Below are positions 62,917-64,000 of a stretch of DNA of 64,000 nucleotides, piece by piece. How positions within the stretch are numbered: position 1 is the stretch's first letter; each line of letters starts with the position of its first letter. The notes under the pieces were generated by a model, which was not told where the DNA came from, ran no database searches, and saw only the letters and a list, made by a program, of their open reading frames with translations. The DNA comes from a virus (lineage: Duplodnaviria; Heunggongvirae; Uroviricota; Caudoviricetes): the IMG/VR virus record IMGVR_UViG_3300049216_000317, positions 20,961 through 84,960 of that record, one strand, 5' to 3'. Both the position numbers and the translations under genes were made by a program.

Positions 62917-63799
62917 CTTACAGGACTCGACTTGTTCAGTGGCATCGGCGGAATCAGCATTGCCCTCGAACCGTGGGTCCAAACAATCGCCTACTGTGAA
63001 TCAGACAAATATGCTCAGTCCGTCCTTCTGTCACGAATGCGCGACGGGACCTTGCAAAGTGCTCCTATCTGGGACGATGTCCGGACGTTGCACGATGGGC
63101 ATCTCTGCACTCCTGAAATCGGGGTCGATATTATTTTCGGCGGTTTTCCCTGCCAGGACATCAGCGCTGCGGGCGCTGGCGCGGGCTTGGAAGGAAAGCG
63201 AAGTGGCCTTTTCTACGAAATCGTCCGACTCACCAAAGAAATCCAACCGACGTTCGTCTTCCTCGAAAACGTCCCAGCAATCCGAACCCGTGGACTTAAA
63301 GACGTGGTCGGGTCATTTACCGATCTCGGGTATGACTGTCGGTGGACTTGTATCTCAGCCTCGTCAGTTGGAGCCCCGCACCTCAGAAAAAGATGGTTTA
63401 TGTTGGCTGCCAACACCGAGCGCATCGACCTATGGAACGAACATGGGCGGAGCGGCGGGACGATCGGGAAAGATTCGTCCCTCATTGGAAACGATGGCGC
63501 GCAAGAGTCTCTGGCCAACGCCGCGATCGAGCGACGGGAAGGGCGAGGGAGCCGGGGCAGCAGCAAGACGACAAGCCAGCGGAGCGGGATGCACTCTAGC
63601 GGGAGCGGTCAAGCTTTGGCCGACACCAACAGTCAGGGACTCGAACACGATTGCCAAGTGTACTCGGGGAGCGAACGCTTCGCCGGGCGGGACACCGCTG
63701 CCGGTAGCGGTGGGAGCAACTCTGAATCCTATGTGGGTGGAACTTTTGATGGGTTTTCCGCCTGGCTGGACGACAATTCTACCCGACTTGGAAAGCTAG
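62917..63799 (+). pseudogene. DNA (cytosine-5)-methyltransferase interrupted by a +1 frameshift
   Basis: Frame 1: LDLFSGIGG (I), GGFPCQDISAAG (IV), FVFLENV (VI), APHLRKRWFMLA (VIII). Frame 2 from about 63404: WLPTPSAS, LWPTPRSSD, KLWPTPTVRD, LNPMWVELLMGFPPGWT (C-term motif) to stop at 63799. GC-rich. Confidence 0.6.
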
Positions 63800-63817
63800 T
63801 TGGGGAAATCGTTAATT

Positions 63818-64000
63818 ATGCCCATGACCAAAAAACTAGACCCCGAGAAGTTTTGCGAATTTTGTGCGAAAGAGCTTCTGAGGAAAACCTACGCCAATCG
63901 ACTGGAAGATCGGAATACCTTTCTTCGCAGAAGATTTTGCTCGCTTGCTTGCTCGGAATCGAAAAAGGGCAAACTGACGAAACATGGTTACAGTTGGCGC
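63818..64000 (+). CDS. partial Cys-rich ORF (possible HNH/zinc-finger protein), 3' end off window
   Basis: MPMTKKLDPEKFCEFCAKEL..RRFCSLACS open to window end. Confidence 0.25.
   Translation, partial: MPMTKKLDPEKFCEFCAKELLRKTYANRLEDRNTFLRRRFCSLACSESKKGKLTKHGYSWR

Follow-up and report, generated by a model that had tools for sequence, protein, structure and literature searches.

The methyltransferase locus at the 3′ end of the window (the whole 64,000-nucleotide stretch of Caudoviricetes virus DNA analyzed here) is best explained as one DNA stretch that encodes three proteins in two reading frames. We place at roughly three in four the probability of an M.EcoHK31I-type C5 methyltransferase made of two polypeptides, with the beta gene nested in the alpha gene, plus a nested and apparently mobile HNH gene. 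All three open reading frames are intact, a selected frame can be assigned to each segment, and read-through is selectively maintained. We infer that alpha and beta are translated separately and then assembled into an active methylase.

The two-frame layout is conserved in dozens of unrelated phage contigs. It is present in 39 of 80 viral loci retrieved by the N-terminal domain alone, and also in about 50 HNH-bearing metagenome loci. The sequence-only reading of the window had described a methylase broken by a +1 frameshift and had offered sequencing error, decay, a slippery-run phase switch or programmed frameshifting as the cause; given this recurrence and the selection signatures in both frames, none of these is the best explanation. 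Gene callers and first-pass readers mistake such a locus for a methylase with a frameshift, or report just one of its overlapping ORFs, and thousands of phage methylases are probably mis-annotated as a consequence. It is possible but doubtful that the nested alpha/beta arrangement prevails across a very large clade of phage methylases, in which case M.EcoHK31I would be no one-off curiosity. The profile of beta and the long +1 ORF matches about 50,000 clusters (50% identity), a count that includes single-chain and other relatives.

Proposed catalytic subunit and linker

Alpha begins at GTG 62908 on the plus strand, and its frame (frame 0) contains no stop codon from there to the end of the window at 64000. 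On the source contig the frame extends as far as a stop at window-equivalent position 64338, for a total of 476 codons. The product matches the 476-residue protein P0001 exactly, and its C-terminus, VDRVDRLKCLGNSVVPAQVRVAFEILIGG, is motif X (…RLKCLGNSVVP). The supposedly broken gene therefore has an uninterrupted frame that ends in motif X. Identical assemblies of the source contig were obtained in two samples, and a megablast search of 61400–64000 against GenBank phages returned no match.

Motifs I (DLFSGIGG, 62929–62952), IV (GGFPCQDIS, 63139–63165), VI (ENVPAI, 63265–63282) and VIII (GAPHLRKRWFMLAA, 63370–63411, with HLRKRWF) follow one another on alpha in the order of a C5 cytosine DNA methyltransferase. 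This identity, already proposed from the letters, is confirmed by Pfam PF00145 (E = 1.3e-37 over profile positions 2–162; the match of alpha ends at position 165 of 324) and by TIGR00675, for which alpha scores 105 bits and exceeds the cut-off of 100.65. Foldseek matches alpha to the large domain of M.HhaI and M.HaeIII (E = 1e-12), with only ~173 columns aligned. Every family-invariant residue in the alignment is found in alpha, including P81 C82 Q83, E120 N121 V122, R160 and R162. The catalytic domain with these four motifs spans 62908–63420 (plus strand), where frame 0 is the selected frame; among 29 homologs, the variable positions in this domain are the frame-0 wobble positions.

The TRD and motif IX are absent from the alpha chain and occur only in the +1 frame, so alpha lacks the makeup of a single-chain C5 methyltransferase. 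AlphaFold2 assigns pLDDT values above 90 to residues 1–175 and about 460–476, and values below 50, with no secondary structure, to residues 183–291; alpha alone has no folded small domain. The catalytic core is joined to motif X by ~280 residues of unselected read-through sequence (for example the frame-0 peptides IDLWNEHGR and SGMHSSGSGQALADTNSQGLEHDCQVYSGSER), which is probably disordered. The frame-0 peptide RLGKLVGEIV (63784–63813) was considered as a degenerate older motif X and was dropped, as nothing similar is present in other HNH-bearing loci.

It is unlikely that alpha is a working methylase by itself and that the +1 frame yields a DNA-binding or regulatory protein of its own, dispensable for methylation. 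The catalytic motifs and motif X are present and confidently folded in the AlphaFold2 model, but motif IX is missing from the chain, as is any folded TRD or small domain, and M.EcoHK31I needs both of its chains (PMC2836561). Beta-like ORFs are commonly annotated as independent “hypothetical proteins”; against this stands the homology of the +1 segment to the in-frame TRD and motif IX of single-chain relatives. One such “hypothetical protein” family, widely distributed and marked by SPARTS…SGM…WPTP motifs, is the +1 reading of a methylase gene.

Proposed beta subunit and selection across frames

The long +1-frame ORF (62906–63799, plus strand, 297 codons) opens with a GTG 2 nt upstream of the alpha GTG and closes with a TAG at 63797–63799. 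It carries three WPTP modules spaced 105 nt apart (WLPTPSAS, 63404–63427; LWPTPRSS, 63509–63532; LWPTPTVR, 63614–63637) and motif IX, LNPMWVELLMGFPPGWT, at 63722–63772. The division of motifs over two frames, as read from the sequence alone, was thus located in full: I, IV, VI and VIII in one frame, and the WPTP repeats and the LMGFPPGWT motif in the +1 frame. The frame overlap had been put at about 63385–63420, around an A5 run. The run is indeed there (63387–63391, plus strand), but the overlap is not confined to this region, as the +1 frame is open from 62906.

Counted from a conserved internal ATG, beta is 155 residues long (63332–63799, plus strand) and includes all three WPTP modules and motif IX. 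The long +1 ORF matches phrog_1008, “DNA methyltransferase”, with E = 1e-24, and the internal-ATG form does so with E = 2e-17. In total, 332 proteins homologous to beta were found, and the family-invariant residues of beta are all present in the window. Pfam gave no matches for the +1 products, nor did NCBIfam for the internal-ATG beta. The structure model of beta alone is of low confidence (pLDDT 68); beta had no fold match or sequence match in the PDB, and its profile gave only chance hits against PDB sequences (E > 0.3).

In three relatives with a single frame (L044, L048 and L053), motifs VIII and X flank the same TRD modules and motif IX, and this layout identifies the window's +1 segment as the TRD and motif IX of the lineage. 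They resemble the window gene in the catalytic domain (about 40% identity), the WPTP modules, LNPxWVExLMGFPxGWT and LGNAVVP. In these relatives, however, a single frame holds everything, and stops abound in the +1 frame.

Codon-position variability was analyzed across 31 divergent homologous loci with 60–76% N-terminal identity. The most variable position is the frame-0 wobble through motifs VII–VIII, then the +1 wobble from “PTP” to “GWTEL”, and then the frame-0 wobble again at motif X; the switches in selection are located exactly at the motif VIII/TRD and IX/X junctions. In the window, the +1 segment under purifying selection (TRD and motif IX) spans 63404–63784 on the plus strand, and frame 0 is an unselected linker over this span. 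Across the TRD–IX region of the 31 loci there are 0 frame-0 stops, as compared to 92 expected.

The HNH-bearing loci afford an internal control. A catalytic-frame stop between motifs VIII and IX is found in 0 of 20 loci that have motif X in the catalytic frame, and in 15 of 25 that have motif X on the beta frame, which shows that read-through is preserved where the catalytic chain depends on it for motif X. Motif X can lie on either subunit's frame (25 loci versus 26 loci). This fits two polypeptides, with M.EcoHK31I and M.AquI as precedents, one for each case. Per stretch, one frame is selected as protein and the other is merely kept open, making the locus a useful model for tolerated overprinting as well as a large, natural and statistically clean case of long same-strand overlapping genes in dsDNA phages.

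The GC content of the region is raised, as had been noticed, at 0.553 in 63001–64000 versus 0.42–0.50 elsewhere in the window. The recent acquisition read from it does not hold, because the dual-coded segment is richer in GC than its flanks in 30 of the 31 homologous loci (median +8 points); the raised GC is a property of the whole family. Avoidance of stop codons in two frames at once would produce a GC excess in the dual-coded segment.

Two programmed ribosomal frameshifts, one of +1 following motif VIII and one of −1 following motif IX, would make one canonical polypeptide with the I–VIII, TRD–IX and X segments in the single-chain order of L044, L048 and L053, and type L loci would need only one +1 shift. 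We regard this as quite improbable. Neither junction has a conserved slippery sequence, as the codons vary (CTT/TTG/CTG; K/R), and no wobble-invariant run is present at columns 160–170. The A5 run that had been flagged is not conserved, and its K/R codons (columns 160–163) vary freely among homologs. Frameshifting further leaves unexplained why frame 0 stays clear of stops for ~120 to 280 codons that no ribosome would translate, and why +1-frame start codons are conserved. The HNH gene of the window sits between motifs IX and X, and a return shift would be needed after or around it.

An assembly or sequencing error, or a recent frameshift in a decaying gene, is very improbable. A one-base indel near 63400 would look alike within the window and real frameshifted variants of the family exist (L167, L170), but frame 0 extends another 300 codons, as far as an intact motif X, an identical contig came from two samples, and the layout recurs in the independent viral and HNH-bearing metagenome loci counted above. 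Purifying selection acts in both frames, and the invariant residues of alpha, beta and HNH are all kept. Phase-variable slippage of the A5 run, toggling a fused and a split methylase, is scarcely credible: the run lies near the change in selected frame and fused “type B” variants occur in nature, but five A's are short for slipped-strand variation, the run is unconserved among homologs, and type B junctions lie elsewhere, at differing non-homopolymeric places.

In some variants, one extra frameshift puts the N-terminus in the same frame as the distal TRD and motif IX, and motif X is left in the third. One such variant was seen in at least three samples, and the genuinely frameshifted relatives include L167 and L170. 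The two-polypeptide model has to treat the extra-frameshift variants as inactive or differently assembled. A second natural architecture, “type B” (N-terminus fused in-frame to TRD–IX), was rejected, as its DNA is that of type A with one indel, at varying places.

Possible beta start sites and related two-chain enzymes

Two start sites can be proposed for beta. In the first, a codon adjoining the alpha start would share its ribosome-binding site and give a long form with a junk leader. A Shine-Dalgarno-like GGAGGGG, read off the sequence at 62897–62903 (plus strand), could serve both GTG 62906 and GTG 62908. In homologs, the +1 ORF usually starts at an ATG that lies 4 nt beyond the alpha ATG (“ATGAATGG”). 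In 28 of 31 loci, the open +1 frame reaches at least 111 codons upstream from the internal ATG, and the N-terminal domains of homologs contain 31 +1-frame stops as compared to 127 expected. A 5′-proximal start of this kind would add ~140 out-of-frame leader residues.

In the second, beta would start at the conserved internal ATG at 63332, which is found in 28 of 31 loci. This ATG is made by frame-0 GGG-TAT-GA (“GYD”). At the GGGTATGA element (63328–63335, plus strand), synonymous positions of alpha are frozen and yield GGT-ATG in the +1 frame: the GGG-TAT wobble bases are invariant in 29 of 29 homologs (columns 142–143: GGG/CGG 29/29, TAT/TTT 29/29), and adjacent wobbles vary. A Shine-Dalgarno sequence was sought 5′ of the internal ATG, and none was found in 28 of 31 loci or in the window. 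A Shine-Dalgarno-like cluster lies at 63184–63204; neither this cluster nor the frozen GGG-TAT synonymous sites are fully explained by the nested-beta model.

M.EcoHK31I (E. coli HK31, YGGCCR) is a two-polypeptide C5 methyltransferase with beta wholly within alpha in another frame (PMC2836561). Its alpha carries motifs I–VIII and X, its beta carries motif IX, and the first 42 residues of beta are dispensable (PMC2836561; PMC3404938). As compared by the literature description of the layout, the window has the same nested distribution of motifs: a large ORF with motifs I–VIII and X (P0001), and within it a small +1 ORF that holds motif IX and is selected in its own frame. The dispensable N-terminus of M.EcoHK31I beta fits the first ~25 codons after the window's internal ATG, which are unselected. 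Three features set the window apart from M.EcoHK31I. The +1 frame of its family is usually open from alpha's own start, so that a long beta is possible; the beta frame clearly holds the selected TRD, whereas the literature puts the TRD of M.EcoHK31I in alpha; and the window gene hosts a nested HNH gene.

M.AquI is a natural two-subunit C5 methylase split in the variable region, with motifs I–VIII on alpha and the distal variable region, IX and X on beta (PMC3404938). Type L relatives of the HNH-bearing gene resemble it, with the TRD, IX and X on one frame and I–VIII on another. In the window, by contrast, motif X stays with the catalytic subunit and beta is nested, not adjacent. Further counterparts are methylase pairs of Paenibacillus larvae phages, such as the nested LEYRA_61/LEYRA_62 of phage Leyra, both annotated as DNA-cytosine methyltransferase. 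In Leyra, a 345-residue methylase has a 234-residue ORF nested in its +1 frame, with WPTP repeats and LNPEWVECLMGFPIGWT. The two betas are only about 34% identical, the Leyra pair has no HNH, and the Leyra beta ATG has its own GGGAGG ribosome-binding site inside alpha. The Paenibacillus larvae phage genome paper does not discuss the LEYRA_61/LEYRA_62 overlap.

Nested HNH gene

The partial Cys-rich ORF that had been taken as a possible HNH gene downstream of the methylase is an HNH gene, and it starts at ATG 63818; it does not follow the methylase gene but lies wholly inside the frame-0 ORF. It occupies the +1 frame on the plus strand from 63818 to the window end at 64000 and on to window-equivalent position 64279, and on the source contig it is complete at 153 residues. 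The ORF matches the phrog_1271 HNH endonuclease with E = 2.1e-12, and four more HNH PHROGs match as well; the Pfam HNH model (PF01844) gives E = 0.0023 and 18.5 bits, under its cut-off of 21.4. The pattern CxxC…CSLxC…CEACG…HAHHxDQN..NN…NIQTLCKHCHNFWH is invariant in 3 HNH sequences, and nearly all of its residues are invariant in 67. The beta-beta-alpha-metal residues (HH…N…N…H) and zinc cysteines of an HNH endonuclease are conserved, and the family-invariant residues are all present. Codon-position entropies are 0.73/0.65/1.28 across 67 homologs. The phrog_1271 match and the selection in its own frame together indicate that HNH is a real gene.

In 83 loci retrieved by HNH alone, the methylase frame is open across HNH in 79 and the other frame in 0. 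Over 67 aligned HNH ORFs, the alpha frame contains 3 stops as compared to 369 expected; the control frame contains 450 as compared to 427 expected. HNH would survive inside its host gene because the alpha linker need only be stop-free.

The distribution of HNH is patchy. The window's HNH is not present in the 30 nearest N-terminal relatives (60–76% identity), of which L022 alone has a different HNH. Its own nearest relatives are 55–72% identical, yet the N-termini of their methylases are only 35–56% identical to that of the window. Such sporadic presence, with a phylogeny discordant with the host gene, is that of a homing endonuclease gene, and by sequence comparison HNH looks mobile. Most probably it is a homing-type mobile passenger that would travel with a copy of motif X. 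The small size, the Cys4 zinc motifs, the patchy distribution and the discordant phylogeny are shared with phage HNH homing endonucleases; the window's HNH differs from them in being neither free-standing nor in an intron or intein, and in occupying the +1 frame of a host ORF that stays open over the whole length of HNH.

Tentatively, the nuclease and methylase can be read together, with HNH and motif X as a mobile cassette or as part of an overlapping restriction-modification or addiction unit, and with the nested layout dominant in the phage clade; we consider this possible but doubtful. In the cassette version, HNH and a replacement motif X may home into the IX/X junction of split phage C5-methylases and reside there out of frame. 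Lodging in the host ORF would depend entirely on the host protein accepting any linker that is free of stops, and would let a homing endonuclease settle in a gene with neither intron nor intein. In the alternative version, nuclease and methylase may form an inseparable overlapping restriction-modification or addiction unit. If HNH is a homing element or the methylase's restriction partner, it would represent a new genetic architecture for selfish nucleases and would bear on phage methylome and anti-restriction biology. Nothing relevant was found in the literature on HNH nested in a methylase gene or on widespread nested beta. HNH joins its host gene in two different frames, and is always +1 of the motif X frame.

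Motifs of one methyltransferase in two reading frames

The alpha ORF, read in frame 0 from GTG 62908, carries C5-methyltransferase motifs I, IV, VI and VIII in a single frame (VDKLTGLDLFSGIGG…GGFPCQDIS…ENVPAI…GAPHLRKRWFMLAA) and matches Pfam PF00145 at E 1.3e-37 over profile positions 2-162. The +1 frame (62906 register) reads WLPTPSAS (63404), LWPTPRSS (63509), LWPTPTVR (63614) and LNPMWVELLMGFPPGWT (63722-63772) before it stops at TAG 63797-63799. A sequence-only reading had assigned the catalytic motifs to one frame and the WPTP repeats and C-terminal motif to the next, and both read as claimed. 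Its conclusion that the gene is broken by a +1 frameshift did not hold, as frame 0 has zero stops from 62908 to the window end and runs on to motif X. Alpha is an exact match to a 476-aa database protein (P0001), and the source contig (L001) is identical to the window over 7,093 bases; together these place the alpha stop at window-equivalent 64338, after a C-terminus reading …VDRVDRLKCLGNSVVPAQVRVAFEILIGG, which is motif X.

Three single-frame relatives (L044, L048, L053) hold motifs I-VIII, the WPTP modules, LNPxWVExLMGFPxGWT and LGNAVVP all in one frame, and their +1 frame is filled with stops. As judged from these sequences, the +1 segment of the window, beta, is the target-recognition domain (TRD) and motif IX of this lineage. 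AlphaFold2 modeled alpha with pLDDT >90 at residues 1-175 and the last ~17 residues (motif X), with pLDDT <50 and no secondary structure at residues 183-291, and with low-confidence helices only where it overlaps a downstream HNH ORF. Foldseek matched the M.HhaI and M.HaeIII large domain over only ~173 columns of alpha, which is thus predicted to lack a folded small domain. Beta modeled alone gave a low-confidence structure and no PDB match.

Beta would start at either 62906 or an internal ATG, 63332. The +1 frame is open from 62906, two bases ahead of the frame-0 start, and in 28 of 31 loci it has at least 111 open codons 5' of the internal ATG. In homologs the +1 frame mostly starts at an ATG 4 nt past the alpha ATG, as 'ATGAATGG'; the window counterpart of these paired starts is GTG 62906 versus GTG 62908, with GGAGGGG ahead of both. 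In a frame-0-guided alignment of the N-terminal domain, synonymous sites are frozen only in GGG-TAT at 'GYD', which makes the +1-frame GGT-ATG of window ATG 63332, and in one cluster. No Shine-Dalgarno sequence was found before the internal ATG. The cluster (63184-63204, frame 0 'GLEGKRS'), with the synonymous positions of GGC TTG GAA GGA GAG CGA AGC almost frozen across 29 homologs, is a Shine-Dalgarno-like AAGGAG/GGAGAG within coding sequence, with no start codon conserved 3' of it.

Conservation of the layout and frame-specific selection

Eighty viral loci were fetched using the 169-aa N-terminal domain as the only query. Motif IX lies in the +1 frame and motif X in frame 0 in 39 of them, and both lie in frame 0 in six; the remainder have other arrangements or are too distant to classify. 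In nested loci, the familiar motifs of 'type A' proteins are out-of-frame readings of +1-frame motifs: LADT or LANA in frame 0 corresponds to WPTP in +1, EPxVGRVxxG to NPxWVEWLMG, and RLxxLGNAVVP to DWATQWFR. The dual-frame gene is also present in a 2.6-Mb bacterial contig. Across these sequences the two-frame layout is conserved and no accident. 'Type B' proteins, whose N-terminus continues in-frame into TRD-IX and which lack motif X, come from type A genes that carry one further indel, its position differing from case to case.

Codons of 31 loci were aligned on the basis of the +1-frame protein. Where the first ~25 codons run across alpha motifs VII-VIII, +1-frame position 2 (the frame-0 wobble) varies most; from 'PTP' to 'GWTEL' position 3 does, with Pro, Thr and Pro columns at entropies of about 0, about 0 and 1.7-1.9 by codon position. 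Variability returns to the frame-0 wobble in the tail overlapping motif X, and the frame-0-guided alignment of the N-terminal domain shows the complementary pattern. Because the most variable codon position shifts in both alignments, protein-level selection runs from frame 0 to +1 and back to 0, switching sharply at motif VIII/TRD and IX/X. Nonetheless, the non-selected frame is maintained stop-free: in the 31 loci, against expectations from resampling the selected frame's synonymous codons, frame 0 across TRD-IX has 0 stops (92 expected) and the +1 frame across the N-terminal domain has 31 (127 expected).

Several variants were also seen. In L167-L169 (P0006) and L170 (P0017), an extra indel in the TRD puts motifs I-VIII in-frame with the distal TRD and motif IX and strands motif X in a third frame; the L167 form recurs unchanged in at least three sequencing runs and is therefore no read error. 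In two viral loci (L066, L067), regular-expression matches alone place a motif IX-like sequence in frame +2 and a motif X-like one in +1 relative to the catalytic domain, which suggests yet another layout. In four viral loci of a Dcm-like C5-methylase clade (L040-L042, L045; GVPQRRRRVFIVG), the +1 frame after motif VIII reads …YYLSAKACAGILTRAERRGKKLPEPLLQALKAQA and looks conserved, and frame 0 ends without motif IX or X; such loci may form a second clade whose C-terminal module is out of frame. A stop interrupts motif IV (GGFP*LCQDIS) of the alpha frame at ~3700 of L084 (ENA contig NODE_11, 44 kb) and beta is intact, which may reflect a pseudogene or an error.

A nested HNH ORF

The Cys-rich ORF downstream, previously proposed as a possible HNH, is complete on the contig (153 aa, +1 frame, window-equivalent 63818-64279) and reads CEFC…CSLAC…CEACG…HAHHVDQNPENNVEQNIQTLCKHCHNFWH. 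The proposal is borne out by a match to phrog_1271 'HNH endonuclease' (E 2e-12), with a sub-threshold Pfam HNH match; the ORF lies wholly within the frame-0 ORF and does not follow the methylase as had been supposed. Its role in the locus is putative.

With the HNH protein as the only query, two viral and 80 metagenome loci were fetched (51-70% identity). The frame at -1 relative to HNH is open across the whole match in 79/83 loci and the +1 frame in 0/83; motif X lies within the -1-frame ORF in 74. In an alignment of 67 HNH ORFs, 3 stops fall in the methylase frame versus 369 expected, and 450 in a control frame versus 427. Codon-position entropies of 0.73, 0.65 and 1.28, with position 3 most variable in 96/126 columns, indicate purifying selection on HNH in its own frame.

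The HNH joins its hosts in two ways. In type W, that of the window (25 loci), beta and HNH are in +1 and motif X in frame 0; in type L (26 loci), beta is in +1, HNH in +2 and motif X on the beta frame, +1, and the catalytic ORF mostly ends by the end of motif IX. Between motifs VIII and IX the catalytic frame is interrupted by a stop in 0/20 type W loci versus 15/25 type L loci, so read-through is upheld where it is required to reach motif X. In type L (L101, L107, L108, L114 and about 28 further metagenome loci), one +1-frame ORF of ~430-530 codons holds TRD, motif IX, the HNH overlap and motif X and spans the whole catalytic ORF; with HNH in the third frame, all three frames of one strand are selected in turn.

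The relatives closest to the window at the N-terminus (60-76% identity) lack its HNH, and the methylases that hold the nearest HNH relatives (55-72%) share just 35-56% N-terminal identity with that of the window. This disagreement, combined with the two ways of joining host frames, points to HNH plus motif X as a candidate mobile cassette. In viral locus L022, whose methylase N-terminus is 66% identical to the window's, the +1 frame after beta holds a different HNH in the same place (CESC…HHLDGNRKNN…LCDSCH, then a Cys-rich tail), suggesting that HNH genes have been captured more than once at the IX/X junction.

Precedents, alternatives and genomic setting

The alpha/beta arrangement is already known in kind, given the precedent of M.EcoHK31I, in which both chains are required and beta residues 1-42 are dispensable (PMC2836561; PMC3404938), and given Paenibacillus larvae phages, whose GenBank annotation already has a nested pair like the window's. 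In Leyra, LEYRA_61 has 345 aa and LEYRA_62, in the +1 frame, 234 aa, with GGGAGG ahead of its ATG. The alpha/beta kind is also far commoner than the literature suggests. The beta query returned 332 proteins, all without a Pfam family, many of them 'hypothetical proteins' of 250-270 aa; the 'SPARTS…' at their N-terminus is motif IV FPCQDIS read in the +1 frame. A profile of beta-like proteins matched 50,791 50%-identity clusters (39,280 at E <=1e-10), a count that takes in relatives of other layouts too.

The locus is an intact overlapping gene for three proteins: alpha, a nested beta and a nested HNH. All three ORFs are unbroken, each segment is selected in a specific frame, and read-through is preserved. 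Alpha and beta would be translated separately and then assemble. Double programmed frameshifting is unlikely, since no slip site is conserved and this model does not account for frame 0 staying open. The earlier proposals of a sequencing error, a decaying gene or a switch at a slippery run are effectively excluded. The high GC, earlier taken as recent acquisition, is a property of the gene family and no sign of recent transfer, as the dual-coded segment exceeds its flanks in 30/31 loci (median excess 8 points).

The phage is ~164 kb (contig 163.8 kb) and encodes terminase, portal, major head protein, DNA polymerase, a GroEL-like chaperonin (25980-27746, minus strand; phrog_5725, E 2e-82) and the nicotinamide phosphoribosyltransferase NAMPT (14605-16095, plus strand; phrog_448, E 2e-192). 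Upstream of the methylase, an AAA-ATPase ORF (61434-62450; PF00004, E 3e-15) overlaps the following ORF (62383-62826) by 68 nt, and a weak terminator-like hairpin (62862-62878), then a T-run, lies directly 5' of the methylase start.
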